Source: Aerococcus viridans (GTDB lineage: Bacteria; Bacillota; Bacilli; Lactobacillales; Aerococcaceae). From it: DNA of 28,171 nucleotides. The translations under genes were made by a program, and so were the position numbers. The DNA lies in assembly GCF_036244575.1 (NCBI RefSeq), contig NZ_BTRM01000027.1; one strand, given 5' to 3'. Below the pieces are notes generated by a model. The model saw nothing but the letters and a program-made list of their open reading frames with translations, did not search any database and was not told the origin of the DNA. The stretch's first letter is position 1. The number at the start of each line of letters is the position of its first letter. Shown here one piece after another: positions 710 to 21,716 of this stretch.

Positions 710-738
710 TTCGAAAACACAACATATAGTACTATAAT
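710..738 (+). promoter_or_regulatory. Candidate sigma-A promoter of the yjzC-like operon
   Basis: TTCGAA (710-715), 17-nt spacer, TATAAT (733-738). The leader then carries a 9-bp inverted repeat, ATATGTAGG (741-749) / CCTACATAT (772-780). Confidence 0.4.
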
Positions 739-805
739 ACATATGTAGGGAATCCCTTCGCCAAAAGTGTTCCTACATATAGAATAAAGAGAGGAGATAA
801 TAGTC

Positions 806-973
806 ATGACTAAAATGTATAATCCCGGAGAAGATAACAAACCTGCTGGGAAGTATAAGGAAGTTGGGCCTAGAGGAGGAAACGTAAAAGATCCTCGGGT
901 CGTTAACATTGATAAGGGCGATCGATTGCCGCCAACCTCTGAATCCGGAAATAATTGGAAAAAAATAAATTAA
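806..973 (+). CDS. YjzC-like small protein (55 aa), absent from the supplied ORF track
   Basis: ATG at 806 is preceded by GAGGAG (791-796). Translation is MTKMYNPGEDNKPAGKYKEVGPRGGNVKDPRVVNIDKGDRLPPTSESGNNWKKIN, with TAA at 971-973. The pattern (PGE..P..G.Y.E.G..GG.V..P..V....GD.LPPT) matches my recollection of the Bacillus YjzC family. Confidence 0.7.
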   Translation: MTKMYNPGEDNKPAGKYKEVGPRGGNVKDPRVVNIDKGDRLPPTSESGNNWKKIN

Positions 974-1024
974 TTCAAAGTAGTTAATAAGAACTTTATT
1001 TATATATAGTTTGGAGGTTAAAAA

Positions 1025-1378
1025 ATGTGGAATAGAAATCAATATTCCGGTCCAGGTGGTGGACTATATACTGGACCGGACGGTGGGCTATATACCGGAC
1101 CAGGTGGTGGAGCATATACCGGACCAGGTGGCGGTTTATATACGGGACCTGGCGGTGGATTATACACTGGACCAGGTGGCGGTTTGTATACTGGACCTGG
1201 CGGTGGATTATACACTGGACCAGGTGGCGGTTTGTATACAGGTCCAGGAGGCGGAGCTTACAACGGCCCAACGCCTTACACCAGTAACATCCCACCCTGG
1301 CCAATATTTGTAAAAGAATTAGAAAAACGAGGACTTACTAGACAGGCTGAAATGATCAGAAGAAGCATTAAAGTTTAA
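1025..1378 (+). CDS. Gly/Tyr-rich repeat protein (117 aa): nine GPGGG(L/A)YT octapeptides plus a unique about 45-aa C-terminal tail
   Basis: GGAGG (1013-1017) lies 7 nt before ATG 1025. The repeat units differ mostly at synonymous positions while the peptide stays GPGGG(L/A)YT. That supports this frame over the two other open frames across the repeats. A hairpin terminator follows the stop. Confidence 0.65.
1049..1264 (+). repeat. 24-bp tandem repeat x9 (in-frame, coding)
   Basis: Units start at 1049, 1073, 1097, 1121, 1145, 1169, 1193, 1217 and 1241. Units 5+6 (1145-1192) and 7+8 (1193-1240) form a 48-bp duplication that differs only in its last base. Confidence 0.95.
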
Positions 1379-1401
1379 AAAATCATCATTTTAATAGTAA
1401 T

Positions 1402-1447
1402 AAACAAGGTTACTTGCATTATTTTGTAAGTAACCTTGTTTATATTT
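1402..1447 (+). terminator. Rho-independent terminator-like hairpin after the repeat-protein gene
   Basis: AAACAAGGTTACTT (1402-1415) pairs with AAGTAACCTTGTTT (1428-1441), followed by ATATTT. Confidence 0.6.
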
Positions 1448-2701: not shown

Positions 2702-5668
2702 TTAAGAAAGTTTTAGTGGTCTTAAAGAATTTAATGAGACTACTTTCTCTGAGTTAAAATGGTATTCTCCTAGTAAATTAATATGTTCCCAACCTAAGGG
2801 CGACATATGGTGTAACAAATCTTCATTAAAGCTACCTGTCCGTTTTTTATATTCAACTGCTGTTGTTAGGTGGAGAGTATTCCAAATACTTATAGCATTG
2901 ATAATTATGTTTAAAGCACTGGCTCTTTGCAATTGATGCTGTATGGTGCGTTCTCTAAGCTCACCTTGTTTTCCGAAGAAAATAGCTCTTGCCAATCCAT
3001 TCATGGCTTCTCCTTTATTCAATCCTCTTTGTATTTTTCTTCTTAATGATTCATCCGATATATAATTCAAAATAAAGATCGTTTTTTCTATTCGGCCCAT
3101 CTCACGTAAGGCTGTAGCTAAGCTGTTTTGTCTTGAATAGGAACCTAGCTTCCCCATAATAAGGGATGCTGAAACTGTTCCCTCCCTTATAGAATGAGCT
3201 AATCGCAAAACATCCTCATAATTTTCTTTAATGACCTTTGTATTTATTTGTCCACGTAAAATGGCTTCTAGTTTTGGATACTCACTTGCTTTATCTATCG
3301 TAAATAATTTTGAGTCCGATAAATCCCTTATTCTTGGGGCAAATTTAAATCCTAATAAATGAGTCAGTCCGAATATTTGGTCAGTGTAACCGGCAGTGTC
3401 TGTATAATGTTCCTCTATGTTTAGATCCGTCTCATGATGTAACAAACCATCCAAAACATGAATCGCATCTCTTGAATTAGTATGAATAATCTTTGTGTAG
3501 TAAGAAGAGAATTGATCACTTGTAAATCGGTAGATGGTGGCTCCTTTTCCAGTTCCATAATGTGGATTTGCATCTGCATGTAGTGATGAAACACCTAGCT
3601 GCATTCTCATACCATCTGACGAAGATGTTGTACCGTCGCCCCAATAGAAAGGCAATTGTAATTTATGATGAAAGTTTACTAATATGGCTTGGGCTTTATT
3701 CATGGCATCTTCATACATGCGCCATTGAGATACATTGGCTAGTTGCTTATATGTAAGTCCGGGTGTGGCTTCGGCCATCTTGCTCAAGCCAATATTCATT
3801 CCCATTCCTAAAAGGGCAGCCATGATAATGATTGTTTCTTCCTTATCTGGTTTTCGATTATTGGAAGCATGAGTGAATTGCTCATGAAATCCTGTTATAT
3901 GGGCCACATCCATGAGTAAATCAGTTAATTTTATTCTTGGTAGCATCTGATAAAGGCTTGCACTAAATTTTTTTGCTTCTTCTGGAACATCTTTTTCTAA
4001 GCGTGCAAGTGATAGCTTTCCTTTTTCAAGAGAAACCCCATCTAACTTATTGGAATTGGCAGCTAACCACTTTAACCTTTCATTAAAGCTGCTGGTTCTC
4101 TCCGTTATATAATCTTCGAATGATAAACTAACTGATAATCTCGTATTCCCCTTCGATTGATTCCATGTATCTTCCGAAAACAAATATTCCTCAAAATCCC
4201 TATATTGTCTGCTGCCAACAATGGAAACATCTCCTGCCCGAACATGCTCCCGAAGTTCTGTTAAAACAGCCATTTCATAGTAATGACGATTAATTGTTGT
4301 ACCATCATCCTCGTATAAATGTCTTTTCCATCGTTTTGAAATAAAATCCACAGGTGAGTCATCAGGCACTTTTCGCTTTCCAGATTCGTTCATTCCTCGG
4401 ATAATCTCAACAGCTTGTAAAAGTGGCTCATTTGCCTTTGTAGAATGAAATTCCAATACTCTTAATAGCGTTGGCGTATATTTTCTTAGTGAATAAAACC
4501 GTTTTTGCAGTAAGTCTAAATAATCATAGTCGGCAGGACGTGCAAGTTCCTGAGCCTCTTCTACTGAAGAGACAAAGGTATTCCATTCAATAACCGATTC
4601 TAAAACCTTAAAAACGTCTAATTTTTCCTCTCTTGCTTTAATTAATGCTTGTCCGATGTTCGTAAAGTGTATAACTTTCTCATTTAGCTTTTTACCGTTT
4701 TGTTTCTGGATTTCCTCTTGAGCCTTACGACCTTTTGATAACAAACTAAGTATTTGCCTATCATGAATTTCAAACGCTTTATCCGTTAGCTCCTGAGTAA
4801 GTTGTAATAAATAGATGGTTAATATCGAATAACGTTTATTTTCTTGAAAGTCACGGAATGCATACGGCTCGTATCTTGAGCCTAAGCGAGACAGCTGCAA
4901 CAGGCGGTTACGGTGCAAATGACTAATTTGCACTGTTTCTAAATCCATTCCTCGTATGTATTCGAGTCGTTCTATTATTTTTAGAAAAGTTTCGGGTGAA
5001 GGATGACCCGGTGGCTCTTTTAACCAACCCAATATCGTTTTATTGGATTCGGATGGATGCTGCGAGGTAATAATCCCTTCAAGCTTTTCTTTTTGCTCAT
5101 TTGTTAGAGATTTACTAACCGTATTAAATAGCTTCTTTTCAGCCATTGCCCTTGCTTCCCACACCATTCTTTCAAGTGTAGTGATAGCAGGCAGTATAAT
5201 TTTGTTTTTTCTTAGAAAATCTATGCATTCATGCAGTAGATGAATGGCATCACCATTTTCCAAAGCTAATTGATGAAGGTACTTAAATGTCATTCGATAT
5301 TCACTCAGGGTAAAAGTTACAAAGTCGTATTCACTTCGAATTTCTTTCAAATGATCCCAAAGTGTATTTTCCCTTTGAGGATAATGATCAAGCGAGGATG
5401 GACTAACACCAATCTGTTTCGATATATATTGTATGACCGAATCTGGGATGCTTTTGATATGAGTGTATGGCCAACCGGGATACCGAAGAACAGCTAATTG
5501 AACAGCAAATCCTAAACGGTTTTCTTCCCTCCTTCGCTTATTAACTATTTCTAAATCCCGTTTGGAAAAAGTGAAGTAGGTCCCCAGTATCCATTCATCT
5601 TCAGGGATTTGCATAAAAGCCTGTCTCTGTTCCGGTGTAAGCAATTCTCTACCTCTCGCAATTTTCAT
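2702..5668 (-). CDS. tnpA: Tn3-family transposase (Tn1546 ORF1), 988 aa
   Basis: Full-length 988-aa ORF next to IRL and divergent from the resolvase gene. This is the typical Tn3-family TnpA size and position. Confidence 0.97.
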   Translation of the reverse strand: MKIARGRELLTPEQRQAFMQIPEDEWILGTYFTFSKRDLEIVNKRRREENRLGFAVQLAVLRYPGWPYTHIKSIPDSVIQYISKQIGVSPSSLDHYPQRENTLWDHLKEIRSEYDFVTFTLSEYRMTFKYLHQLALENGDAIHLLHECIDFLRKNKIILPAITTLERMVWEARAMAEKKLFNTVSKSLTNEQKEKLEGIITSQHPSESNKTILGWLKEPPGHPSPETFLKIIERLEYIRGMDLETVQISHLHRNRLLQLSRLGSRYEPYAFRDFQENKRYSILTIYLLQLTQELTDKAFEIHDRQILSLLSKGRKAQEEIQKQNGKKLNEKVIHFTNIGQALIKAREEKLDVFKVLESVIEWNTFVSSVEEAQELARPADYDYLDLLQKRFYSLRKYTPTLLRVLEFHSTKANEPLLQAVEIIRGMNESGKRKVPDDSPVDFISKRWKRHLYEDDGTTINRHYYEMAVLTELREHVRAGDVSIVGSRQYRDFEEYLFSEDTWNQSKGNTRLSVSLSFEDYITERTSSFNERLKWLAANSNKLDGVSLEKGKLSLARLEKDVPEEAKKFSASLYQMLPRIKLTDLLMDVAHITGFHEQFTHASNNRKPDKEETIIIMAALLGMGMNIGLSKMAEATPGLTYKQLANVSQWRMYEDAMNKAQAILVNFHHKLQLPFYWGDGTTSSSDGMRMQLGVSSLHADANPHYGTGKGATIYRFTSDQFSSYYTKIIHTNSRDAIHVLDGLLHHETDLNIEEHYTDTAGYTDQIFGLTHLLGFKFAPRIRDLSDSKLFTIDKASEYPKLEAILRGQINTKVIKENYEDVLRLAHSIREGTVSASLIMGKLGSYSRQNSLATALREMGRIEKTIFILNYISDESLRRKIQRGLNKGEAMNGLARAIFFGKQGELRERTIQHQLQRASALNIIINAISIWNTLHLTTAVEYKKRTGSFNEDLLHHMSPLGWEHINLLGEYHFNSEKVVSLNSLRPLKLS

Positions 5669-12742: not shown

Positions 12743-13228
12743 TTGGGAAAAATATTATCTAGAGGATTGCTAGCTTTATATTTAGTGACACTAATCTGGT
12801 TAGTGTTATTCAAATTACAATACAATATTTTATCAGTATTTAATTATCATCAAAGAAGTCTTAACTTGACTCCATTTACTGCTACTGGGAATTTCAGAGA
12901 GATGATAGATAATGTTATAATCTTTATTCCATTTGGCTTGCTTTTGAATGTCAATTTTAAAGAAATCGGATTTTTACCTAAGTTTGCTTTTGTACTGGTT
13001 TTAAGTCTTACTTTTGAAATAATTCAATTTATCTTCGCTATTGGAGCGACAGACATAACAGATGTAATTACAAATACTGTTGGAGGCTTTCTTGGACTGA
13101 AATTATATGGTTTAAGCAATAAGCATATGAATCAAAAAAAATTAGACAGAGTTATTATTTTTGTAGGTATACTTTTGCTCGTATTATTGCTCGTTTACCG
13201 TACCCATTTAAGAATAAATTACGTGTAA
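12743..13228 (+). CDS. vanZ: VanZ (teicoplanin resistance-associated membrane protein), 161 aa, TTG start
   Basis: A multi-TM 161-aa ORF that is the last gene before IRR, as in Tn1546. Confidence 0.95.
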   Translation: MGKILSRGLLALYLVTLIWLVLFKLQYNILSVFNYHQRSLNLTPFTATGNFREMIDNVIIFIPFGLLLNVNFKEIGFLPKFAFVLVLSLTFEIIQFIFAIGATDITDVITNTVGGFLGLKLYGLSNKHMNQKKLDRVIIFVGILLLVLLLVYRTHLRINYV

Positions 13229-13440
13229 GATGTCTAAATCAAGCAATCTGATCTTTCATACACATAAAGATATTGAATGAATTGGATTAGATGGAAAACG
13301 GGATGTGGGGAAACTCGCCCGTAGGTGTGAAGTGAGGGGAAAACCGGTGATAAAGTAAAAAGCTTACCTAACACTATAGTAACAAAGAAAGCCCAATTAT
13401 CAATTTTAGTGCTGAGGAATTGGTCTCTTTAATAAATTTC

Positions 13441-13478
13441 CTTAACGTTGTAAATCCGCATTTTCCTGACGGTACCCC
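13441..13478 (-). repeat. Tn1546 right terminal inverted repeat (38 bp)
   Basis: The reverse complement is GGGGTACCGTCAGGAAAATGCGGATTTACAACGTTAAG, 36 of 38 identical to IRL. Confidence 0.95.
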
Positions 13479-13483
13479 TATTA
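13479..13483. repeat. Right copy of the 5-bp target-site duplication (TATTA) of Tn1546
   Basis: It lies immediately outside IRR and is identical to 2623-2627. Confidence 0.9.
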
Positions 13484-13552
13484 GGAATTCCTGCCTAGTC
13501 TATCGTTAGAAATATTCAAATGCAATCGATTTTTAAACTTTGCAACACAGCC
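13484..13552 (+). mobile_element. IS1216-like element, right 69 bp (last transposase codons plus right IR)
   Basis: GGA ATT CCT GCC TAG completes the transposase frame (..KGLL|GIPA*). AAACTTTGCAACACAGCC (13535-13552) is the inverted counterpart of the left IR (15 of 18). Confidence 0.8.
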
Positions 13553-13586
13553 TTTAACTTTCTTTATGGCTACTTTAACTCCCATC

Positions 13587-13616
13587 AAAAAAGAGTGGAA
13601 ATCTCCACTCTTTTTT
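13587..13616. terminator. Bidirectional rho-independent terminator downstream of the hydrolase gene
   Basis: An A-run, then AGAGTGGA (13592-13599), loop AATC, TCCACTCT (13604-13611), then a T-run. Confidence 0.75.
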
Positions 13617-13627
13617 GGTGCACTGAT

Positions 13628-15064
13628 CTAGTTTTTATTATACTCAGTAAACAAACTTCCAATTAATGGCTGTCCATCCGAAAAGAGGCAATCTTGTTCA
13701 TCTTGGAAAGTGACAAATGTAAAGACACGTTCTCCTTTATTCAGGTAAACTTCAACAAACGAATTATCAACAAAAATGTCGACTTCTTTTAATGTCTTGA
13801 TTTCTGCAAATCTCAAGAATCCGCAGCTTGGATCAATCGTTTTTTGTAAGCCTGACCGTGATAAAGAGGCTAATCCTGCTTTTTTATCGTACATAAATTC
13901 CCAATAATCGTGTTTTTGACCCACTTTAAAGTTGAAATTTTGAGTTAGATTAACACGATAATTCCGACTAGAAGTCATTAATTCGTCCGTTTCAAAATGG
14001 TGTTGTTCATCAAACACATCCACTATATTTTGGGCAGGATAACGCTTTAGTTGCCCTTTATTAAGAGATAAAACCTGAGTATAGCTTAGGCCGTGTTTCC
14101 ATTTCTCAGCGACTGGATATGCTGGTTCTCCACAGCCAAACCATGCCGTCATTAAAGGCGTATGATTTTTCCCATAAAAAGCTTGTGGTGCATAAAAATC
14201 AAATCCAGAATCTAATTCATCCCAATCGTCCACTAGAAATTTTAAATTCTCTACCTCTAAATGTCCCACTAAGTAGACAGTTGCAAAACGATTCTTAAAA
14301 TTATGCTCTGTTGGTTTAATTCCCATTGGGGATAAAAATAATACATCTTTACCTTCTATTGTGATTAAACTTGGGCATTCCAACATATACCCCTTATCAA
14401 TTGGTAAATCGACTTCACCTTGGTACTCCCAATTGATTAAATCTTGACTCTTATACAACAAGAGTACTCCTTCATCACCAAACTTTTGTTTCACTTCTGG
14501 ATGATTTATTTTGCTACCACCCAATAGCATATAAAAACTATCCTGACGTCTAAATACAAAAGGATCACGAAGTTCGCCAGATAAACCGGTTGGAAAATGA
14601 TCAAGGATAGGCTTATCTCTTTTAGTAATCTTACCTTCTTTGTCCATAATCGCAAGTCCCTGTTTTGGTAACTTACCATTCTCTACTTTGTAATTAGCTG
14701 TGTAAAACAAATACAATTTCCCATCATATTCAAGTGCATTTCCAGAATAACAGCCATTTTTTTCAAATTCTTGATCTGGAATCAATGCAAAGTCTTGGTC
14801 TGACCAATTGACTAAATCAGTTGAACTAGTATGGCCCCAATGTTTTAGGCCGTGTAAGGTATCAAAGGGATACCATTGGAAAAAAAAGTGATATTTTCCA
14901 TTGTAATAGGCTAATCCATTCGGATCATTCATAAGTCCTACTTTGGGATAGATATGGTACTTAGGTCGATATTGGCTCTTTTGAACTTCCTTTATTTGTT
15001 TGTCTAATGTCTCTTTTTCACTTGTTTGATAATATCTTTCCGTAAACTTTTTAGGTTCTGTCAT
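13628..15064 (-). CDS. scrB: Sucrose-6-phosphate hydrolase (glycoside hydrolase family 32), 478 aa
   Basis: GH32 signature motifs are present: MNDPNG, RDP (ELRDPFV) and EC (MLECPSL). GGAGG lies upstream, and the gene sits immediately downstream of a PTS EIIBC gene. Confidence 0.9.
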   Translation of the reverse strand: MTEPKKFTERYYQTSEKETLDKQIKEVQKSQYRPKYHIYPKVGLMNDPNGLAYYNGKYHFFFQWYPFDTLHGLKHWGHTSSTDLVNWSDQDFALIPDQEFEKNGCYSGNALEYDGKLYLFYTANYKVENGKLPKQGLAIMDKEGKITKRDKPILDHFPTGLSGELRDPFVFRRQDSFYMLLGGSKINHPEVKQKFGDEGVLLLYKSQDLINWEYQGEVDLPIDKGYMLECPSLITIEGKDVLFLSPMGIKPTEHNFKNRFATVYLVGHLEVENLKFLVDDWDELDSGFDFYAPQAFYGKNHTPLMTAWFGCGEPAYPVAEKWKHGLSYTQVLSLNKGQLKRYPAQNIVDVFDEQHHFETDELMTSSRNYRVNLTQNFNFKVGQKHDYWEFMYDKKAGLASLSRSGLQKTIDPSCGFLRFAEIKTLKEVDIFVDNSFVEVYLNKGERVFTFVTFQDEQDCLFSDGQPLIGSLFTEYNKN

Positions 15065-15103
15065 TATTAGCCTCCTTTAGAGGGTTATTTCAAGTTAAAC
15101 TTC

Positions 15104-16528
15104 CTATATTTCTGCACCCTTAACACCTTTAACTTTGTTATAAACCACTAACAAGAGAATCGGAATGAGGGTCGCTAAAGCACAACCAATAACATAATGA
15201 ATCATCGTTGGTGGGTTAACAATTGTGACACCTGGAATACCAGTTAGACCAAAACCTAACGCTTTAACATCTAATAATTTCATGTAAACTCCACCGCTAA
15301 AAGCTCCGACTACACCCATTAAGAATGGAATGATAGAGTCTTTCAAGTTGACTGCAAAGATGGCTGGCTCACTGACACCAACTAGTGTAGGAATAAAACT
15401 TGAGACAGTTATTTCTCGTCTTTTTGACCCTTTCTTAGCTAAGAAGAACATTCCTAATGCTGCACCACCCTGTGACATAATTGATACAGCCCATAAAGGT
15501 TGAATATAGTTAAAACCAGTCTGAGCAATCAACTGAGCTTCTATTGAACCGATCAAGTGATGAGTTCCTGTAATTACTAGTGGTTGCAATAAAGCAGCAA
15601 ATAACCCTGCTCCCAATAATCCAGCTTTAACATATAAAAAGTCAGCTGCTGTTCCAATCGCTACTGCGACCATATCACCTAGTGGCCCAAAGACTAAGAA
15701 TAAAGCTAGAGCAGACACTAAGATAGTAATAGCCGGAACCACAATAAAGGTTAACATTTGTGGTGTATGTTTGCTGACAAATTTTTCGAATTTTGCCATG
15801 AAGAGTGAACTTAGAATTGCTGGAAATATACCGCCTTGAAAGGCAACTTGTGGAACTTGGTACCCAAAGAAATCCCAAAACTCTACATTGTCTAATGTTC
15901 CTTGAACATATTCAAAACGATTACCTAAGTCAGGATGAACTAACATTAACCCAAGGATGATCCCGAAAACAGGATTTCCACCAAAGCGTTTTGTCGCCGA
16001 ATAGGCCACAAAAACAGGCAGAAAACTGAGCCCTGTTGATATCATATTTAAAAAACTAGCAATATCAGCAGCCCACTTATACTGGTCAGCCAAACTACCT
16101 TCAAGACCAAATACTCCGGTCGTCATAAAAATAGCTCTAATACCTAAAAGCATCGCACTACCAACAATGGCAGGAATCAACGTCACGAAGATATCTGAAA
16201 AAGCTTTAAAGAATTCGAATAATTTATCTTTCCAGTTTTGTGGTGCTTTGGCTTTCACTGCATCAGTTGAGGCAAGGTCATCTTTAGGACTGTCTTTCAC
16301 AAATTCCTCGTAAACTCGATCAACAGTACCAGTTCCAAACACAATTTGTAACTGACCTTTATTAAAGAAAACGCCTTTGGTGCCTTCTATTTCTTCTAAC
16401 TTATCTTGATCATAATTGTTCTCTTTTAAAACTAAACGCAAGCGAGTGACACAATGCGTGGCGCTTTCGACATTACTCCTACCACCAATGGCATCAAGAA
16501 TATCTGACACAATTTTTTTGTAATTCAT
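15104..16528 (-). CDS. scrA: PTS sucrose-family EIIBC component, 474 aa
   Basis: The N-terminal EIIB domain has the phosphorylatable Cys motif (ATHCVTRLRL). It is followed by a polytopic EIIC domain. RBS is AGGAGA. Confidence 0.88.
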   Translation of the reverse strand: MNYKKIVSDILDAIGGRSNVESATHCVTRLRLVLKENNYDQDKLEEIEGTKGVFFNKGQLQIVFGTGTVDRVYEEFVKDSPKDDLASTDAVKAKAPQNWKDKLFEFFKAFSDIFVTLIPAIVGSAMLLGIRAIFMTTGVFGLEGSLADQYKWAADIASFLNMISTGLSFLPVFVAYSATKRFGGNPVFGIILGLMLVHPDLGNRFEYVQGTLDNVEFWDFFGYQVPQVAFQGGIFPAILSSLFMAKFEKFVSKHTPQMLTFIVVPAITILVSALALFLVFGPLGDMVAVAIGTAADFLYVKAGLLGAGLFAALLQPLVITGTHHLIGSIEAQLIAQTGFNYIQPLWAVSIMSQGGAALGMFFLAKKGSKRREITVSSFIPTLVGVSEPAIFAVNLKDSIIPFLMGVVGAFSGGVYMKLLDVKALGFGLTGIPGVTIVNPPTMIHYVIGCALATLIPILLLVVYNKVKGVKGAEI

Positions 16529-16671
16529 ACCGTTTCTCCTTTTTTGTTAGACTAGTTATTCTAAGGTATTTGCTGCGATAGCACTGAAGCAGTCATCAGT
16601 TCCACAGAATGTGCAAATATCGATTAATAAAGATGATTCAGTTAGTATAAGAGGCCAACTTTTATACTCTT

Positions 16672-16709
16672 CATTATACTTGGAACGTTCCAAATTGCAA
16701 GCGTTCTCA
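16672..16709 (-). promoter_or_regulatory. Promoter of the PTS-hydrolase operon with an embedded LacI-type operator and a cre-like box
   Basis: On the minus strand: TTGCAA (16695-16700), 16 to 17 nt, TATAAT (16672-16677). The 14-bp perfect palindrome TTGGAACGTTCCAA (16680-16693) fills the spacer. TGCAAGCGTTCTCA (16696-16709) is one mismatch from the cre consensus TGWAANCGNTNWCA. Confidence 0.6.
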
Positions 16710-16736
16710 TTAAATAAACTACTTTTTATCATTCAA

Positions 16737-16777
16737 TCTTTACAAGCTATTCTTTACAAAGCACTCTTTACAAGCTA
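16737..16777. repeat. Three direct 13-14-bp repeats (TCTTTACAARGCW) with exact 14-bp phasing
   Basis: Units start at 16737, 16751 and 16765, just upstream (minus-strand sense) of the PTS promoter. Confidence 0.8.
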
Positions 16778-16906
16778 ATCTTTTAAACTTTATTTTTGTG
16801 TTTTAGACCTAAAACGGTTTGTTCAATGGTAAACTGCTAAATTGTGGACTGTTTAACTCTAGATTAAAGCACAATAAACTATAGCAAGCAGTGGTCTAAG
16901 CTCAGC

Positions 16907-16937
16907 AAAAAAGCTATCACCCAAAACGGTAATAGCT
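16907..16937 (-). terminator. Terminator-like hairpin downstream of the LacI-family gene
   Basis: AGCTATCAC (16912-16920) pairs with GGTAATAGCT (16928-16937) imperfectly. On the minus strand a T-run follows (plus-strand A-run 16907-16912). Confidence 0.5.
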
Positions 16938-16992
16938 AAAAAGTCTGGTATTTTCTCCTCATGTCTTGCGTTTTCAAAACGCATCCCTACCT

Positions 16993-17988
16993 TTAAAGCT
17001 CACTAGGATGCTTTCGTGTCGTTGACAATGGTAAGAAGTGGACAGGTAAGAAATGTAAATTTTGTCTTTCTTTATCTTTGTCAAAATGAATCAACTCGTC
17101 TACACTAATTCTAGCAATTTCTGACACATTTTGTCTGATTGTTGAAATCACTAGCGGTTGTGATTGATAACTTCTAGCCCCATCAAATCCTATTAGCTGT
17201 ATATCCTCTGGAATTTGCCATTTTAATGCTGAAAAAGAGTGTAACACATATTCAGCGTAACGGTCAGTCATCGTAAAAATACCATCGTAAGGAATATCTT
17301 CTCGATAAGCAGTCAATAGGTACTCATCCAAGCGTTTTGAAAATCCAGCAGAATCTCCTGTATCCTCATGAATTGCATAGGTCACTTTAGCATGTTTACA
17401 ATAATCAATAAAACCATTTAGTCGTTCAAATACCCCCATATTTTTGGGGATTCGTCTCATAATTAATAGTAATCTTTTTGCACCACGCTGGTGTAATTCT
17501 GCTGCAGCAGTGCGCGCACCGATGAAATTATCACTGGTAATAAAAGGGACTTGTTGATTAAAGTAGCGTTCGATTGACACAATAGGAAGGTTAGATGTCA
17601 AGTAGGGGTCTATATCACTGTAAGAGATTGTGATAATTCCTTTCACCTTTTCTTCTTTCGCCATCTGAACGTACTCCAACTCTTTATTGTAATCATTCTG
17701 CGAATTACATAGTAAAAGCTTAAGGCCATATTTCTGTAATTCCAGCTGAATAAAATAAGTCAGTTCGGCAAAAAAAGGTGTCCAAATTGTGGGCAAAATA
17801 AAAGCTATCGTATCACTAGAGTTTTTCTTCAACGATCTAGCGGCTTGATTGGGAACGTAGTTTAAGCGTTCAATGGCCTCTTTAATTCTTTCGGCCGATT
17901 TCTCGTTTATTTTAACCCCATTAATAAAGTTGGAAACCGTCCCACGAGATACTCCCGCAAGCTTTGCAACATCATTCATATTTGCCAT
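16993..17988 (-). CDS. scrR: LacI/GalR-family transcriptional regulator (sucrose operon repressor type), 331 aa
   Basis: N-terminal HTH (MNDVAKLAGVSRGTVSNFING) plus a periplasmic-binding-protein-like sugar-binding domain. It lies adjacent to the PTS/GH32 genes. Confidence 0.88.
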   Translation of the reverse strand: MANMNDVAKLAGVSRGTVSNFINGVKINEKSAERIKEAIERLNYVPNQAARSLKKNSSDTIAFILPTIWTPFFAELTYFIQLELQKYGLKLLLCNSQNDYNKELEYVQMAKEEKVKGIITISYSDIDPYLTSNLPIVSIERYFNQQVPFITSDNFIGARTAAAELHQRGAKRLLLIMRRIPKNMGVFERLNGFIDYCKHAKVTYAIHEDTGDSAGFSKRLDEYLLTAYREDIPYDGIFTMTDRYAEYVLHSFSALKWQIPEDIQLIGFDGARSYQSQPLVISTIRQNVSEIARISVDELIHFDKDKERQNLHFLPVHFLPLSTTRKHPSEL

Positions 17989-18262
17989 GCAACTACCTCA
18001 TTCATTTCTCTTTCATTCCTCGACAAAACTCTTTTAAACTTCATAACTTATGACTTGCTTTATCCCTCATGTCTCACGTTAAATATTAGCATAATCATTC
18101 TTCATTATAACATTAAGTCACCCCATGATTTTAGCTATCTATCAAGAAACAAAAAACAACCACCAGGAGCTGTCTTTTAGCTTAACTACTGACGGTTGGT
18201 TCTTTTGTAACTCATATTTTAAAACATTTGAGTGACTAACGAAACACTCGCACGACACAAAA

Positions 18263-19372
18263 CTATTCTATAATTTCAGAAATTTCCGGTTCAACTGTAA
18301 CAGCATCTAGACCTAGATGTTTGATACGACGGTTATTGATGAAATATAACACTGCACAAACCAAAGGTATAATGGCAGCAAAGATATAAACACCCCTGAA
18401 GGACGTCATGGATCGCAATGAACCCATTACATATGGTCCAACACCTAACCCTAAATCCAATCCAATAAGGTAGGTCGATAACGCAACCCCAGTACGGTGG
18501 TTATTGACAAGTTTTAAACAAACGGCTTGGCCATTCGACATAAACGTCCCATACCCTAACCCCACTAATGCACCTGAAAGGAGTAACATTGGACTATTAA
18601 CAGTTAAACTCAAAAGTAGGAGACCAGCAGTTAAGAAAAAGTAACTAGGATACATGACAAATTTTTCGCCTTTTTCATCAAAAATACGACCAGTCAATGG
18701 TCTGGTAAACGTGATTGCCAAGGCATAAACTACGAAGAAGAAAGAGCCTGCATCTACTAAATCAATGGCTTTAGTAAATGATGACAAGAAAGAAAGAACA
18801 CTTGAATAAGATAACCCCATTGGAAATGCGATAAAAGTGACTAATAATGCTTTTTTTCAATGAAGCTATGAATACTCCAAGAGCTCAACACTTTTTTTTT
18901 CAGATCTTCTGATAATTGAATATTGCGAACTGGGAAGGCAAAACAGGCAATGGTTACGATTGCAATCAACACAATTGAGAACCAGATGATGAATTGGAAA
19001 TTCGTCAAATTTAAGAGAATCATTCCAATAAACGGTCTAATTGCTGCTGCTAAACTCGTACTTAAACCGTAGTAATTAATGCCTTCACCGTGCTTAGATT
19101 TTGGAATATAAGTTGTAACGATGGCATTAGTAGCAGTTGATACAGTACCGTATCCAAAACCATTTAAGAAACGAACGAGGTATAAAACACCAATAGTAGG
19201 TGTGAACAAGTAAGCGACTGTGGTTACAAGGTAAAAAATTGCCCCTACTCTTAATACATTTTACGTCCCAATAATTCTAATTGTTTACCCATAAACAAGC
19301 GGGCTAATAAAGTTCCTATAATATAAATGCCAGATGCAAAACCAGCTTGACTTAAGCTAGCGTGTAAATTGT
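18263..19372 (-). pseudogene. MFS transporter pseudogene (5'-truncated, at least two frameshifts)
   Basis: Three consecutive minus-strand frames encode contiguous MFS sequence: DNLHASLSQAGFASGIYIIGTLLARLFMGKQLELLGRK, then (shift near 19255-19263) VLRVGAIFYLVTTVAYLFTPTIGVLYLVRFLNGFGYG, then (shift in the A7 run at 18852-18858) ALLVTFIAFPMGLSYSS... . TM1 is missing and a stop lies directly upstream of 19372. Confidence 0.85.
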
Positions 19373-19387
19373 CTTAAGTTTTGAACA

Positions 19388-19416
19388 CGAAAATGGCCGA
19401 AGCCTCCGCTTCAGCC
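19388..19416 (-). terminator. Terminator-like hairpin downstream of the 71-aa ORF
   Basis: GGCCGAAGC (19395-19403), loop CTCC, GCTTCAGCC (19408-19416), 8 of 9 paired. On the minus strand it is followed by ATTTTCGTGTT. Confidence 0.45.
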
Positions 19417-19485
19417 AAAATGTTATTAACCAATGTAACCTCTATTGAACATGTAAGAAAAATTATAGCATATACTAATCAAGTA

Positions 19486-19701
19486 TTATTTGCCCTTAAG
19501 ATATTTTGATCTATCAGACATATGTTTTGCTCCAAGTGAACTCCCTCGTCTAGTTGCATCTGACATTAATTCTTTAAAATAATAATCTTTATCTTCGCAT
19601 AAATCTTCTAGCTGTTTTATTCTTTTGCTCTGCACTAAATTCCTTTTTTTCAATGCTGAAAGTTCCTTTTTGTATTTGTTTTTTCCGAACAATCCCATCA
19701 T
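19486..19701 (-). CDS. Hypothetical small basic protein, 71 aa, predicted helical/coiled-coil
   Basis: A strong GGAGG lies 5 to 6 nt upstream of the ATG. The Lys/Arg-rich sequence is MMGLFGKNKYKKELSALKKRNLVQSKRIKQLEDL... . I recognise no family. Confidence 0.6.
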   Translation of the reverse strand: MMGLFGKNKYKKELSALKKRNLVQSKRIKQLEDLCEDKDYYFKELMSDATRRGSSLGAKHMSDRSKYLKGK

Positions 19702-19819
19702 CTATTCCTCCACTCTAATAATCTATTTTATTATTTATATAACTTAAAAAAATAAAGTCCATAGTTAGACTAAAGATTAGTACCTTTTGTCTAAAATATT
19801 ATTTATCAATTAATGGTAT

Positions 19820-19851
19820 ATACTTAAATTTACTTAAGTTAATTTAAGTAT
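19820..19851. repeat. 32-bp near-perfect palindrome (30 of 32) between the two small minus-strand ORFs
   Basis: ATACTTAAATTTACTTAAGTTAATTTAAGTAT. The only two mismatches are the symmetric T:T pair. Confidence 0.85.
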
Positions 19852-19858
19852 CGTTCTT

Positions 19859-20029
19859 TTATTCATCGGAATCCCAATGCTCATCACCAATAGCTTGATC
19901 AGCAAACTCCCGAATAGCGTCATCAACTTCATCACGATCATAAACATCTAACTTATTATAGATTTTATCGAATTCTTCTTCATCTAATTCCTCTAAATTG
20001 TTAATCAGATAATTCTTATCTTTTCTCAT
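19859..20029 (-). CDS. Hypothetical highly acidic small protein, 56 aa (not in the ORF track)
   Basis: AAGGAG lies upstream of the ATG at 20029. Translation is MRKDKNYLINNLEELDEEEFDKIYNKLDVYDRDEVDDAIREFADQAIGDEHWDSDE. An extended -10 (TGcTATAAT) and a 15-bp palindrome, AGTGAC-TAG-GTCACT, lie upstream on the minus strand. Confidence 0.55.
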   Translation of the reverse strand: MRKDKNYLINNLEELDEEEFDKIYNKLDVYDRDEVDDAIREFADQAIGDEHWDSDE

Positions 20030-20244
20030 AATATAATCTCCTTATTTCTATCATACTCTTGTCTTAGTGACTAGGTCACTTTAATTATAGCAGTTTAATG
20101 TTTCATTCATTCACTACTTGTTCGACGCCTCTGTCGGCATAAAGAAGTCAATAAAGAAAACGTACTATTTTCGTCTATTTTGGGTACACCCTATTGTGGG
20201 TTATTTGAATTATACTTATACGTATATTCATAAGTGTAATCATA

Positions 20245-20288
20245 AGCATAAGTATAATTATATGTATACATATAATTATACTTATGCT
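20245..20288. repeat. 44-bp perfect palindrome overlapping the parA promoter (candidate par operator/centromere)
   Basis: AGCATAAGTATAATTATATGTA|TACATATAATTATACTTATGCT. TATAAT at 20288-20293 follows directly. Related ATAAGYRTA motifs occur at 20210-20250. Confidence 0.85.
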
Positions 20289-20318
20289 ATAATAGAATTA
20301 AAGAGAAAGGGGTATATC

Positions 20319-21110
20319 ATGAAACTAATTAGTTTTAGCGCAATCAAGGGTGGTGTTGGAAAAACAACATTAGCATACAATTATGGAGAATGGTTAGCAA
20401 ATAAAGGATACAATATATTGTTCATTGATTTAGACCATCAATGTAATTTGACACAAATTTACGATATTTATGATGTCAAAGATACCATAGCGAATGCCTT
20501 TACTAATACAGGTGATGTTAAAATTCAAAGTGTTGGTTCAAATATTGATATCATTGCTGGTAATTTACAATTAGATAAAATTGAAAGTCAACTCGAAAAT
20601 AAGAGTAATAAGGATATGTTACTTTATATGTGGCTTGATGATAATTATGAGGATAAAAAGTTAGATCATTATGATTATATTATATTTGATTGCCACCCTG
20701 ACTTTTCTATTGCCACTAGAAACGCAATTGCGGTTAGCCACACAATAATTAGTCCTATCACTCCTAGCGAGCATGGGTATAGAGCTAAATTTAACTTAGA
20801 AGAAAGATTAGATGAATTTAAAAAAGAAACAATCGATTATAAAACAAGAGAATCCTATGTTACTGGAAAATTATATTTTGTTGGAAATATGATAAAGCAT
20901 AATACTAAATCTTCCAGAGATTTTTTAGAAACTGTTGCGGAAGATGAATCTGTCATCACATACTTTCCTTCAAAAGAATTGATGAATAAATCTACTTTAG
21001 AACATATTTCTTTACCAAAAATGGAGAAAAACATGAATAGTAGCGATAAAATCTTTTTTGAAAATATTAATAAATCTTTTAATATAATGACTGATGTAAC
21101 GGAAGATTAA
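20319..21110 (+). CDS. parA: ParA/Soj-family plasmid partition ATPase, 263 aa
   Basis: The ATG at 20319 follows GAAAGGGG. The deviant Walker A motif is KGGVGKTT in MKLISFSAIKGGVGKTTLAYNYG. The ORF-track start at 20118 only extends through the AT-rich repeats. Confidence 0.9.
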   Translation: MKLISFSAIKGGVGKTTLAYNYGEWLANKGYNILFIDLDHQCNLTQIYDIYDVKDTIANAFTNTGDVKIQSVGSNIDIIAGNLQLDKIESQLENKSNKDMLLYMWLDDNYEDKKLDHYDYIIFDCHPDFSIATRNAIAVSHTIISPITPSEHGYRAKFNLEERLDEFKKETIDYKTRESYVTGKLYFVGNMIKHNTKSSRDFLETVAEDESVITYFPSKELMNKSTLEHISLPKMEKNMNSSDKIFFENINKSFNIMTDVTED

Positions 21111-21121
21111 GGAGAATTAAA

Positions 21122-21337
21122 ATGGCATTTGAAAAAAAAGATACAAAGATATCTGAAGCATTAAAAGAATCTAAAGAAAAAGGAATTCCCTCTATTCAAC
21201 ATTCTGAAAAAACAAAACCTTATACTTTTACGCTTCAACCTAGTAATAGAGAAAAATTAAATCAACTAGCTTCTAAACGAGGATATGCTTCAGCTTCAAA
21301 ATTTTTGAATGATTTAATTGAAAATATGCAAATATAA
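21122..21337 (+). CDS. Small ribbon-helix-helix type partition/centromere-binding protein candidate, 71 aa
   Basis: It sits immediately after parA, with GGAGA upstream. The C-terminal half (KPYTFTLQPSNREKLNQLASKRGYASASKFLNDLIE) has the beta-strand-helix-helix pattern of CopG/ParG-like proteins. Confidence 0.7.
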   Translation: MAFEKKDTKISEALKESKEKGIPSIQHSEKTKPYTFTLQPSNREKLNQLASKRGYASASKFLNDLIENMQI

Positions 21338-21400
21338 GTATACTTACAAATATAAATATAAATATAAATATAAATATATGTATGCTTATATTTATATGGT
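21334..21400. repeat. AT-rich repeats downstream of the par operon, including (AAATAT)x5 and ATAAGTATAC-type motifs
   Basis: The palindrome AAGTATACTT lies at about 21335-21344. The hexamer AAATAT is repeated five times at 21348-21377. TATGCTTATA-type motifs echo those upstream of parA. Confidence 0.75.
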
Positions 21401-21510
21401 TTAAATGTTAATTGTCTATATAATTTTCCTATAAAACAAATATATTCGCATATAAGAAAATTATACGCGCATACCACTTACATTATGTTAAAATAAATTT
21501 AATAAACACG

Positions 21511-21546
21511 AAAAAAAAAGCGGTAGATTGAAAATCAATCTACCGC
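21511..21546 (-). terminator. Strong minus-strand rho-independent terminator in the par-repA intergenic region
   Basis: A 12-bp perfect stem, GCGGTAGATTGA (21520-21531) / TCAATCTACCGC (21535-21546). On the minus strand it is followed by T9 (plus-strand A9 at 21511-21519). Confidence 0.7.
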
Positions 21547-21617
21547 TTGAAAATAAAAATCTCAACTCACCTAGTCGACCAAAACTTGAAGTTGAGAAAG
21601 AACTTTTATAAGTTTAC
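21511..21617 (-). ncRNA. Candidate about 105-nt small RNA in the repA upstream region
   Basis: The minus-strand promoter is TTTACA (21648-21653), 17 nt, TAAACT (21625-21630). The transcript would contain the hairpin 21560-21597 (TCTCAACT/AGTTGAGA) and end at the T9 terminator. There is no ORF with an RBS. Confidence 0.25.
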
Positions 21618-21671
21618 AAGACCCAGTTTACTAGACTACTCCTGTTTTGTAAAGTAAATAACATATAAAAG

Positions 21672-21716
21672 CCCTTTCTTAATTTCTAGACTACGAGTAA
21701 GAGAATTAAGAAAGGG
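21672..21716 (+). promoter_or_regulatory. 13-bp perfect hairpin immediately upstream of the repA start codon, covering the only SD-like sequence
   Basis: CCCTTTCTTAATT (21672-21684) pairs with AATTAAGAAAGGG (21704-21716). TTTTT follows, then the ATG at 21726. Confidence 0.6.

Follow-up and report, generated by a model that had tools for sequence, protein, structure and literature searches.

A mobile two-gene cassette on a vancomycin-resistance plasmid of Aerococcus viridans encodes a YjzC protein and a member of a widespread family of capped glycine-repeat proteins

What does a small protein built largely of glycine-rich octapeptides do on a resistance plasmid, and why is it encoded behind a YjzC-like gene? 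The locus that raises this question lies in the accessory region of a vancomycin-resistance plasmid, in a stretch of 28,171 nucleotides from A. viridans (contig NZ_BTRM01000027.1) that we analysed as a whole and call the window. A preliminary description had recognized a compact, co-oriented two-gene unit with its own expression signals. ORF1 and ORF2 are present exactly as claimed, and the unit contains a promoter-like element, two Shine-Dalgarno sites and a 3' hairpin. Its features are as follows.

711 to 738, plus strand: sigma-70-like promoter, TCGAAA and TATAAT with a 16-nt spacer (10 of 12 matches in a consensus scan)
732 to 789, plus strand: imperfect inverted repeat with arms at 732-749 and 772-789, spanning the -10 box and the 5' UTR
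791 to 796, plus strand: Shine-Dalgarno sequence GAGGAG, 9 nt 5' of the ORF1 ATG, found by reading the sequence
806 to 973, plus strand: ORF1, YjzC-family protein of 55 aa (Pfam PF14168)
1013 to 1017, plus strand: Shine-Dalgarno sequence GGAGG, 7 nt 5' of the ORF2 ATG, found by reading the sequence
1025 to 1378, plus strand: ORF2, capped glycine-repeat protein of 117 aa (11.7 kDa, pI 9.4, 32% Gly, 12% Pro)
1025 to 1048, plus strand: N-cap MWNRNQYS, with the family motif W-[PNV]-R-[ND]-x-[YS]-[ST]
1049 to 1264, plus strand: array of nine 24-bp units encoding GPGGG(L/A)Y(T/N), from TRF and codon analysis
1265 to 1375, plus strand: C-cap, a conserved motif followed by a two-helix hairpin (residues 92-101 and 105-114)
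1400 to 1443, plus strand: hairpin 3' of ORF2, 19 bp (RNAfold dG -26.3 kcal/mol, z = -8.2)

The segment from 711 to 1443 is a genuine mobile two-gene cargo cassette. A block from 534 to 1751, including the promoter at 711 to 738, is common to the window and the Aerococcus plasmid pT4302. Homology to Enterococcus faecium plasmids spans from 750 to 1407, ending inside the 5' arm of the hairpin, and it begins only at 750 because IS1216 replaces the promoter region there. Relatives of the cassette lie between IS6 elements on Aerococcus and E. faecium plasmids. The exact 117-aa protein is encoded on at least 23 contigs; in all six of the places shown YjzC is immediately upstream, and the flanks vary (resolvase, AIPR, McrBC, copper/cadmium ATPase, MatE). 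In isolate assemblies, ORF2 alleles of 85 and 133 aa adjoin an identical YjzC. The cassette is accessory plasmid cargo, unrelated to the van genes. The pair had been called unannotated, but its relatives carry the RefSeq labels 'YjzC family protein' and 'hypothetical protein'.

With regard to expression, the inverted repeat at 732 to 789 (18-nt arms, 78% complementary, 22 nt between the arms in a repeat search) is possibly an operator or a leader hairpin. The hairpin at 1400 to 1443 is probably the intrinsic terminator for both genes, with a weak T-tail; none of 200 shuffled sequences folded equally well in RNAfold. A strict terminator scan gave no sites at the locus because it accepted only loops of 3 to 8 nt with at least three G-C pairs and a longer T run, and the RNAfold hairpin overrides this empty result. 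No Rfam model matched anywhere in the window.

The YjzC-like label of ORF1 was borne out by the Pfam YjzC profile PF14168, which matches at positions 6 to 55 of 55 (E=1.1e-14, 55 bits against a curated gathering cut-off of 25). ORF1 also matches phrog_3202 (E=1.4e-23), and it shares with this family a length of about 55 aa and the conserved PG-DN-G-Y-GPRGG and DRLPPT motifs. PF14168 is present in all 95 ORF1 homologues except two short ones. AlphaFold builds a small beta fold for ORF1 (pLDDT 90), and this model has no match in the PDB; the family is without known function or solved structure. Elsewhere YjzC stands by itself; in Listeria and Tetragenococcus prophages, for example, it is inserted on the opposite strand. 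Here it is probably co-transcribed with the repeat gene. YjzC is also carried by phages. The idea that YjzC is a one-unit relative of the repeat protein, based on its GPRGG and LPPT motifs, was rejected (hhalign probability 0.1).

In ORF2, the N-cap is followed by eight octads of the form GPGGG/GPDGG-[LA]-YT, of which the third is GPGGGAYT, then by a ninth octad, GPGGGAYN, and a 37-aa tail. Asp occurs in only one unit, and the array has no Lys or Arg. TRF reports a period of 24 with 8.5 copies at 1052-1255, plus a period-72 row. The proposal that the peptide is conserved, made from the mainly synonymous differences between units, holds up well. Compared pair by pair, the nine units differ by 150 synonymous codon changes against 30 non-synonymous ones; third codon positions of the ORF2 frame account for 165 of the 219 nucleotide differences. 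Between alleles, the non-repeat parts of ORF2 show 18 synonymous and 4 non-synonymous changes, and ORF1 differs from its E. faecium allele by 12 synonymous and 4 non-synonymous codon changes; the intergenic spacer differs from that allele at 2 of 51 positions. Since synonymous changes dominate among both units and alleles, both ORFs are under purifying selection. Homologues also keep the frame and differ by whole units, as the alleles of 117 and 133 aa (48 bp apart) and of 85 aa illustrate. This is a weak test because unit-sized indels in a 24-bp repeat are automatically in frame, and the real evidence for the ORF2 frame is the synonymous/non-synonymous pattern. The 48 bp correspond to two units that are missing relative to an otherwise identical Aerococcus allele: ORF2 is a shortened allele, with 9 units against the canonical 11.

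Existing models offer no name for this protein. Pfam gave noise only (DUF4774, E=0.32), NCBIfam and PADLOC gave no match, PHROGs gave a single noise match (E=0.37, one homologue), and a PDB profile search returned only a low-complexity match to RON2. The C-cap alone matched nothing in Pfam or the PDB, and literature searches on GPGGG bacterial repeats, YjzC, glycine-rich proteins with Fic, and pJY33 brought up no description of the protein, in line with the earlier statement that no function had been described. The tail had been thought unique to this protein, but a large family has it as its conserved C-cap. A search with a 40-aa tail query returned only family members with one or two units or fragments, and no cap-only relatives. 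ORF2 belongs to a large, widespread and undescribed family of small capped-repeat proteins, with 887 word-index matches and 940 representatives at 50% identity (E<=1e-3). The hosts are Bacillota, Pseudomonadota, Actinomycetota, Acidobacteriota, Planctomycetota, Cyanobacteria, Verrucomicrobiota and Bacteroidales, and a single archaeal MAG also has a member. The top matches are all small prokaryotic proteins. When a phage origin was tested, INPHARED gave no match and IMG/VR gave 4 of 2.9 million viral contigs.

The design of the family is an N-cap W-x-R-N/D-x-Y/S-S/T, octads G-P-G-G-G-(L/M/A)-(Y/S)-T, and a C-cap PY-x-SNIPPWP with a helical hairpin. ORF2 has all three parts: W-x-R-[ND]-x-[YS]-[ST] right before the array, octads G-P-G-G-G-[LMA]-[YS]-T with Ala in unit 3, and P-Y-x-S-N-[IW]-P-P-W-P followed by the helical hairpin. 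In a 60-sequence alignment every member has W2 of the N-cap, and at least 90% have R4. Of 67 genome or plasmid loci, 52 have 11 units and none has more than 12; these loci were retained by score rank to the query, which biases the set toward long arrays. Across the family, unit numbers from 1 to 12 occur. Some of the short arrays may be collapsed short-read assemblies. Individual units also have their own identity, as unit 3 has Ala in 79 of 95 sequences and units 6 and 8-10 have Leu in at least 89 of 95. At octad positions G1, P2, G3, G4 and G5 conservation reaches 90% or more in most units. Position 7 is bimodal: of 200 members, 113 are at least 90% aromatic there and 46 at least 90% Ser, and what this position has in common is the hydroxyl group and not the aromatic ring.

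Most Bacillota members start with M-W-x-R and have no signal peptide. This also applies to ORF2, whose N-terminus, as read from the sequence, has no hydrophobic segment; the absence of a signal peptide had been noted correctly, and ORF2 is not one of the secreted members. A separate subfamily has signal-peptide-like N-termini and a Cys pair. In a second architecture the same array is C-terminal in lipoproteins or secreted proteins with PEGA, TPR or FKBP domains; there, Cys caps flank the array, and 'WNR' is fused directly to 'PSPYC'.

How the array is organized in space is a structural puzzle, as conservation argues for a defined body and AlphaFold shows none. In the ORF2 model the array (residues 6-80) is coil with pLDDT below 50, so it is from conservation alone that we infer a folded body. 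The C-cap (residues 81-117) is modelled with block-mean pLDDT values of 67, 90, 94 and 75 and with helices at residues 92-101 and 105-114, and a beta-bridge joins residues 2-3 with 86-87. A Foldseek search of the model against the PDB gave only E > 5. Where a Cys immediately precedes the N-cap W (ECPxGTW), it co-occurs with a C-cap Cys (Y-C-SN; counts 25/4/32/139, Fisher p = 2e-12), and most of the proteins that have this N-cap Cys also have a signal-peptide-like N-terminus. The AlphaFold bridge and the Cys-Cys covariation in secreted members suggest that the two caps clasp, and the Cys caps and WNR-PSPYC fusion of the second architecture point the same way. The N-cap would then dock onto the C-cap and hold the ends of the array together, and the array might form a closed, tightly constrained glycine-rich body of defined length instead of a free elastomeric chain. 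Such a body would display Tyr or Ser, together with Thr, as a regularly spaced row of hydroxyl side chains. The range of 1 to 12 units is hard to square with a single rigid fold.

The opposite view, that this is a disordered elastomer-like or phase-separating Gly-Pro-Tyr protein whose spaced Tyr residues serve cross-links or condensates, had been raised in the preliminary description and is unlikely, though it is the strongest of the alternatives. P-G dipeptides are typical of beta-turn elastomers such as GPGGX silk and elastin-type repeats. The array has such a dipeptide every 8 residues, the low pLDDT of residues 6-80 agrees with disorder, and array length varies from allele to allele. It fits poorly, however, with Gly and Pro positions that are near-invariant across phyla, a canonical number of 11 units that is almost never exceeded, position-specific residues such as Ala in unit 3, and conserved terminal caps that appear to clasp. 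Because Ser replaces Tyr array-wide in 46 of 200 members, the spaced Tyr is not a conserved functional feature, which rules out dityrosine formation or pi-stacking as the conserved function. The likeness to elastomeric repeats (flagelliform silk GPGGX, elastin VPGVG, resilin) lies in the Gly/Pro periodicity, the P-G turn-former and the Tyr of many family members. There is no homology, and the period of ORF2 is 8 and not 5; in its family the number of units, about 11, has a sharp upper bound, units have residues of their own, the caps are conserved and Tyr is dispensable. ORF2 is a small bacterial protein, not a fibre. Flagelliform silk consists of GPGGX pentapeptides in long uncapped runs with spidroin homology, whereas this array is capped and has at most 12 units.

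Other glycine-rich repeats share single features with ORF2. The RTX beta-roll (GGxGxDxUx) also combines a glycine-rich turn with a 3-residue segment that has a hydrophobic position, is tandem and needs a capping region, but the ORF2 unit is an octad and not a nonad, has no conserved Ca2+-binding Asp, no type I secretion context and no match to Pfam HemolysinCabind, and AlphaFold builds no roll. In polyglycine-II bundles (snow-flea antifreeze protein, the phage S16 gp38 adhesin, the Obg N-domain), strict Gly in short repeated segments forms a small compact body. The array may resemble these, which would explain its invariant Gly and fixed unit number. The ORF2 unit lacks Gly at every third residue throughout, no sequence or fold match was found, and the AlphaFold model of the array is of low confidence. 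The unit G-P-G-G-G-L-Y-T, with its period of 8, likewise does not have the Gly at every third residue of collagen-like GXY repeats. Ice-nucleation protein repeats (8/16/48 residues, AGYGSTxT) resemble ORF2 in their octapeptide period, their higher-order DNA period (48 and 72 nt in ORF2) and their G/Y/S/T/L-rich composition. ORF2 differs from them in having no sequence similarity, far fewer units and no membrane anchor, and the hosts of its family include gut and clinical bacteria.

The genomic neighbourhoods give another view of the family. The repeat gene is usually a solitary cargo gene, and most neighbourhoods have no conserved partner. On plasmid pJY33 (2,365 bp) the only gene besides rep encodes a canonical 133-aa member and has a Shine-Dalgarno sequence and a -10 box of its own. 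Other members are found in a Tn916-like module of Clostridium perfringens pJIR4150, on an Acinetobacter junii plasmid, where DUF4062, a reverse transcriptase and RelE/ParE are close by, and on a Bacillus amyloliquefaciens plasmid. In several lineages family members lie immediately downstream of HTH and M78 modules (CapH/CapP, RosmerTA RmrA) or of Fic proteins (SoFic). In 17 loci of gut Bacilli and Clostridia, a capH-like HTH gene and an M78-Fic fusion are directly upstream, in most cases at 1-12 nt. The HTH/M78-Fic/repeat synteny is kept at 52% identity, and the HExxH and HPFxDGNGRxxR motifs of M78-Fic are intact in all but one truncated locus (L029); L058 is N-terminally short and keeps both motifs. 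A SoFic-like gene (E=8e-65) is upstream of the repeat gene in a Desulfobulbaceae MAG, and a full-length RmrA gene (E=3.7e-119) is upstream of it in Macrococcoides. Further neighbours are ApeA-HEPN, DUF4062 (twice adjacent), type ISP restriction-modification, HNH, TIR_2, reverse transcriptase and dynamin-like genes; these defence genes are individual observations rather than a measure of enrichment, and ORF calling was crude in high-GC loci. The comparison with the HTH/M78/Fic modules also has its limits, as the repeat protein matches no PADLOC model and is mostly found without such genes. In the window, a six-frame scan found no Fic motif and there is likewise no M78 gene; the cassette consists of ORF1 and ORF2 only and has no M78 peptidase or Fic in the same operon, as RosmerTA, CapH-CapP or SoFic would.

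A stress-protective role, as a hydrophilin- or chaperone-like plasmid cargo for desiccation, salt, metal or cold tolerance, is quite unlikely. Small plasmids of lactic acid bacteria do carry stress genes. The protein is small and glycine-rich, the Aerococcus cassette adjoins 'general stress protein' and copper-resistance genes, and among the hosts are halotolerant Lactobacillales and Bacillales as well as those of food or soil. Across the family, however, no stress gene recurs as a neighbour, the repeat has Leu and Tyr and not charged or polar residues, and such strict conservation of motif and unit number would be unusual for protective disordered proteins.

Even less probable is that the two genes form a type II toxin-antitoxin-like or addiction module, in which the antitoxin would be YjzC and the toxin the repeat protein, or the other way round. 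Two small co-transcribed plasmid genes that move jointly as a cassette would suit such a module, and one family member adjoins RmrA, the RosmerTA antitoxin that is found with diverse toxins (PMC10440598). RosmerTA antitoxins pair with diverse partners of unknown function (PMC10440598; bioRxiv 10.1101/2022.05.11.491447). At the RmrA locus, however, the toxin position, 21 nt upstream of RmrA, is filled by DUF5986. Toxin-antitoxin partners co-occur obligately, and these two genes do not. Beyond Enterococcus and Aerococcus, YjzC is upstream of the repeat gene in only one of the fetched loci (L093), and no other conserved small partner ORF is found beside family members there; the repeat gene is the sole cargo of pJY33, YjzC is solitary in Listeria and Tetragenococcus prophages, and IS1216-truncated copies of the repeat gene persist without YjzC. 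The pairing with YjzC had been described as unexplained; it is not a property of the family. YjzC is a lineage-specific, probably co-transcribed partner with one independent recurrence, not an obligate subunit.

We give as little credence to a structural or adhesive surface module, in which a glycine-rich (PGII-like) array binds the envelope and the cytoplasmic forms are derived. The subfamily with a predicted Sec signal peptide and Cys pair, and the C-terminal arrays of lipoproteins and secreted proteins (PEGA, TPR, FKBP), speak for it, but the M-W-x-R start without a signal peptide of ORF2 and most Bacillota members, and the lack of recurring secretion genes nearby, speak against it. The reading that there is no gene, only a DNA-level tandem repeat (VNTR or iteron) with an incidental ORF, could draw on three more open frames over the array (1011-1313 on the plus strand, 996-1304 and 1039-1215 on the minus strand) and on VNTR-like polymorphism in unit number, but is effectively refuted by the excess of third-position differences in the ORF2 frame, the Shine-Dalgarno sites, and caps and an array whose protein sequence is kept from Bacillota to Proteobacteria despite low DNA identity.

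We come back, then, to a mobile cassette whose repeat protein belongs to a capped family, would have clasped ends and would serve as conflict cargo. Taken as a whole, this is our best explanation, and we give it an even chance of being right. The repeat protein would work alone, its gene being accessory cargo on plasmids and ICEs and in prophage-like regions and defence islands, and our best guess for the likeliest arena would be conflict with phages or mobile elements. As to the activity itself, we can offer a guess, and a rather doubtful one: the repeat protein may present a multivalent surface that serves as a binding site or pseudo-substrate for enzymes acting on the hydroxyl groups of extended peptide segments, notably Fic AMPylases. 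At least three lineages encode the repeat protein beside Fic, and the support for a Fic link comes from about three independent lineages. A partner in the cytoplasm is out of reach for the subfamily with predicted signal peptides. In its most specific form, which we hold to be about as doubtful, the capped 11-octad array may be a new compact glycine-rich fold, shut by the clasp of its two caps, and a new component of bacterial conflict systems. It would be a stand-alone, multi-site hydroxyl 'board' that is bound or modified by Fic-type AMPylases (SoFic-like, M78-Fic) or phage enzymes and acts as a decoy, sensor or buffer, with YjzC as a modulator in Lactobacillales. If the Fic link is real, the family would provide a new type of partner for AMPylase-based defence.

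The interest of these proteins is not limited to this reading, as the family is small in format, extremely constrained and cross-phylum, and is found on vancomycin-resistance plasmids and ICEs and beside Fic, M78 and RmrA genes. The 2.4-kb cryptic plasmid pJY33, which has been used as a vector backbone, carries the repeat gene. A family definition is merited and would correct mis-called start codons, for example those in pJY33 and pJIR4150.

The genes at 806-973 (ORF1, of the YjzC family) and 1025-1378 (ORF2) form a real, mobile two-gene cassette, and ORF2 is a shortened member of an undescribed family of capped repeat proteins. The preliminary description had placed both open reading frames correctly, with a promoter-like site before the pair and a good ribosome-binding site before each ATG, and its assignment of ORF1 to YjzC agrees with the Pfam match. 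The shared terminator that it proposed stands in part: a significant hairpin follows ORF2, and a scan for consensus terminators found no site. The pair had also been called unannotated, which does not hold for relatives, where RefSeq labels it "YjzC family protein" and "hypothetical protein."

Features of the cassette and its surroundings
1-90: 3' end of a resolvase-type gene, left neighbour of the cassette
711-738, plus strand: promoter-like site, 10/12 consensus matches
732-749 / 772-789, plus strand: imperfect inverted repeat covering the -10 box and leader
791-796, plus strand: Shine-Dalgarno GAGGAG, preceding the ORF1 ATG
806-973, plus strand: ORF1, 55 aa; Pfam YjzC E=1.1e-14, over the curated cut-off; also phrog_3202
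1013-1017, plus strand: Shine-Dalgarno GGAGG, preceding the ORF2 ATG
1025-1378, plus strand: ORF2, 117 aa; MWNRNQYS, nine octads GPGGG(L/A)Y(T/N) and a 37-residue tail
1400-1443, plus strand: 19-bp hairpin (probable terminator), -26.3 kcal/mol, z = -8.2
1884-2629: IS6-family element, 75-78% identical to IS1216 and ISTeha2, right neighbour of the cassette
2702-5668: Tn1546 transposase, 988 aa

The window shares the block 534-1751 with the Aerococcus urinaeequi plasmid pT4302, and the block 750-1407 with E. faecium plasmids, in which IS1216 takes the place of the promoter region. At least 23 metagenome contigs encode the identical 117-aa protein. YjzC lies directly upstream in 6/6 places shown, and the flanks of these six places vary (resolvase, AIPR, McrBC, heavy-metal ATPase, MatE). 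Isolate assemblies have an identical YjzC followed by 133-aa or 85-aa repeat alleles beside a copper-resistance cluster, and on three E. faecium plasmids the array is truncated by IS1216 and YjzC is missing. In the window, the IS6-family transposase is split (ORFs 1956-2399 and 2436-2678) and the element abuts Tn1546, the match to which begins at 2621-2623. With 13000-28171 as the query, parts of ~22.3-27.0 kb, past Tn1546, are 91-93% identical to A. viridans and A. urinaeequi plasmids, and the Aerococcus-plasmid-like genes past Tn1546 encode a MobQ relaxase, an ArdC-like protein, RepA and an AAA ATPase. Together with a cassette that is identical to that of pT4302 bar a 48-bp indel, this suggests that the vanA Tn1546 is on an Aerococcus-type plasmid. 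The window has no Rfam match. The ~300 bp 3' of the terminator hairpin (1448-1751) are still ~95% identical to pT4302 and hold just one short ORF (1683-1802, 39 aa), partly common to pT4302.

The ORF2 product (11.7 kDa, pI 9.4, 32% Gly, 12% Pro) has the nine octapeptides first described, and its N-terminus is without a hydrophobic stretch, in line with the claimed absence of a signal peptide. As had also been noted, the units differ mostly at synonymous positions: their pairwise codon differences are 150 synonymous versus 30 nonsynonymous, and 165 of 219 inter-unit nucleotide differences fall at third positions. Against an E. faecium plasmid allele with ~85% DNA identity to the cassette, the codon changes are 12 synonymous and 4 nonsynonymous in ORF1 and 18 and 4, respectively, in the nonrepeat parts of ORF2. 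This pattern indicates selection on the ORF2 peptide, and the possibility that the array is a noncoding repeat is effectively excluded. The pT4302 allele is the window allele plus two units, otherwise identical; this 48-bp difference agrees with the expectation that alleles vary by multiples of 24 bp, which is a weak test, as unit-sized indels are in frame by construction. Tandem Repeats Finder gives a 24-nt period with 8.5 copies and a higher-order row at 72 nt. ORFs of 58-102 aa (1011-1313 on the plus strand, 996-1304 and 1039-1215 on the minus strand) were dismissed as candidate genes, being frame artefacts of the 24-bp repeat. Neighbouring units in the arrays of the window (1049-1264) and of two relatives' loci (L001, L002) alternate between two synonymous codon sets (GGACCT GGC GGT GGA TTA TAC ACT and GGACCA GGT GGC GGT TTG TAT ACx), which creates a 48-bp super-repeat; the window and pT4302 arrays differ by exactly one of these.

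A word-indexed search with ORF2 gave 887 matches. When 1.84 billion representatives were searched exhaustively with a profile, 940 scored E<=1e-3, of which 364 reached <=1e-10 and 59 reached <=1e-30. Scanning one genome per species found the family in 97 species, from which 80 loci were kept. Its members occur in Bacillota, Pseudomonadota, Actinomycetota, Acidobacteriota, Planctomycetota, Cyanobacteria, Verrucomicrobiota and Bacteroidales and in a single Nitrososphaerota MAG. They share an N-cap, W-[PNV]-R-[ND]-x-[YS]-[ST], octads of G-P-G-G-G-[LMA]-[YS]-T, and a C-cap, G-P-x(1-3)-P-Y-x-S-N-[IW]-P-P-W-P, followed by an amphipathic helical hairpin. The tail of ORF2 that was thought to be unique is thus the C-cap common to the whole family. 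Comparison with Pfam, NCBIfam, PADLOC and PDB sequences gave nothing above noise, PHROG gave only a noise match (E=0.37, one homologue), and our literature searches found no description of the family.

Eleven units is the usual length of the array: it is found in 52 of 67 genome and plasmid loci, against 10 units in 7 and 12 units in 1. Of 200 complete members compared more widely, 95 have 11 units and just 2 have more. Short arrays (1-10 units) exist with caps identical to those of the window, some of which may be collapsed short-read assemblies. The 11-unit norm and these shared caps indicate that the nine units of the window are a shortened allele. In the eleven-unit proteins, position 6 of unit 3 is Ala in 79/95, that of units 6 and 8-10 is Leu in at least 89/95, and units 2, 4, 5 and 11 carry either Leu or Met there, so the units are not interchangeable within the array.

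AlphaFold2, run on the ORF2 product with 60 homologues, left residues 6-80 as coil (pLDDT <50) and gave the C-cap block-mean pLDDT values of 67, 90, 94 and 75, with helices at 92-101 and 105-114 and a beta-bridge joining residues 2-3 to 86-87. Cysteines in the N-cap ((E/D)CPxGTW) and in the C-cap (P-Y-C-S-N, at the position equivalent to residue 86) co-occur: 25 members have both, 4 the N-cap Cys only, 32 the C-cap Cys only and 139 neither (Fisher p = 2e-12). This covariation is independent support for the predicted clasp. Members with Cys just ahead of the N-cap W mostly have a textbook signal-peptide-like N-terminus. In a second, also undescribed architecture (P0227, P0276, P0294, P0298, P0300 and P0317), the same GPGGGxYT/ST array is C-terminal in secreted or lipoprotein chains with PEGA, TPR or FKBP N-domains. 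Its array is flanked by Cys caps, C-x-G-Y-S-G-P-G-G-P-C and W-N-R-P-S-P-[YH]-C-K, in which the WNR and PY-C motifs are contiguous, and this arrangement resembles a permutation of the W-x-R and P-Y caps. Taken together, the bridge, the Cys pairs and the contiguous motifs suggest that the array ends are held together by clasping caps, and the array may form a closed body with a set length. The invariance of Gly would agree with a beta-turn spiral or with polyglycine-II-like packing. Fold searches gave no match.

The ORF2 family behaves as cargo of mobile elements, and its gene often looks autonomous. BLAST clustering found nothing in common between most neighbourhoods, and a search for a conserved small partner ORF beside the members found none. 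The 2,365-bp Weissella cibaria plasmid pJY33 carries rep, a canonical 133-aa member and no other gene; it is a cryptic rolling-circle plasmid (PMC9998201, citing Park et al. 2015). Its member (208-609) truly starts at 208 (MWIRNRYT, after a strong Shine-Dalgarno site, AAGGAGG) and not at the RefSeq start, 343. RefSeq starts fall inside the array (MYTGPGGG...) for both this member and that of C. perfringens pJIR4150, which lies within a Tn916-like module; there the frame is open at least to position 4680, upstream of 4752, and the real start is probably also further upstream. Further members are encoded on a plasmid of B. amyloliquefaciens and on one of Acinetobacter junii, the latter near RelE/ParE, DUF4062 and a reverse transcriptase; another is on a 57-kb viral contig, close to its lysis and tail-fibre genes.

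The neighbours that recur are conflict genes. A capH-like HTH gene and an M78-Fic fusion lie directly upstream of the repeat gene in 17 loci of gut Bacilli/Clostridia and on 3 further metagenome contigs. Gaps are 1-12 nt in most, and the gene order persists at 52% identity. The HExxH and HPFxDGNGRxxR motifs are intact except in a truncated copy (L029); L058 is N-terminally short and keeps both. With the repeat gene they make a three-gene cassette (L013-L015, L026, L034-L038, L042, L044, L048, L049, L053, L058, L065, L122, L123 and L128), a candidate defence or toxin module in which the M78 peptidase is fused to an apparently active Fic domain. In L013 the cassette separates a two-component system from argS. 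Upstream of a member in a Desulfobulbaceae MAG is a SoFic-like gene (E=8e-65), and in Macrococcoides a full-length RmrA (E=3.7e-119). Both SoFic and the RosmerTA antitoxins have been described as parts of defence systems (PMC10440598; bioRxiv 10.1101/2022.05.11.491447). Further conflict neighbours are genes for ApeA-HEPN, DUF4062 (adjacent in two cases), type ISP restriction-modification, HNH, TIR_2, reverse transcriptase and dynamin-like proteins. All these are raw occurrences, and several neighbours of the family are plainly housekeeping genes. No Fic motif occurs in the window.

Fic enzymes recognise extended segments bearing Tyr, Thr or Ser. Position 7 is bimodal between proteins: 113 members are at least 90% aromatic there, 46 at least 90% Ser. 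We infer that what is conserved on the surface is a hydroxyl (Tyr or Ser, plus Thr), not an aromatic ring. An elastomer or dityrosine material, a stress protectant and an envelope module were weighed as alternatives for the ORF2 product or the pair. The mechanism that we favour, as a guess, is that the protein would present Fic-type AMPylases with a multivalent surface, for binding or as a pseudo-substrate, and the arena might be phage or mobile-element conflict.

A toxin-antitoxin pair was also weighed. A homologue-built HMM found one more YjzC beside the repeat gene, in L093 (5688-6429; E=1.4e-7), an alphaproteobacterial MAG: a diverged 69-aa ORF lies directly upstream, by 103 nt, of a family member that has itself diverged. 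The Pfam YjzC model had no match there at E<=0.01. The pairing thus recurs at least twice, yet is not a family property. Homology between YjzC and the repeat protein was rejected by direct comparison. The 95 YjzC homologues are nearly all ~54 aa and from Bacillota; AlphaFold gives ORF1 a confident small beta fold (pLDDT 90), with no match in the PDB by sequence or fold. In Granulicatella, a YjzC-like protein has been seen by proteomics (PMC12732219). In Listeria monocytogenes and Tetragenococcus halophilus (L096-L102), YjzC is a lone opposite-strand gene in prophage early/replication regions, between an HTH gene and RusA, a moron-like position.
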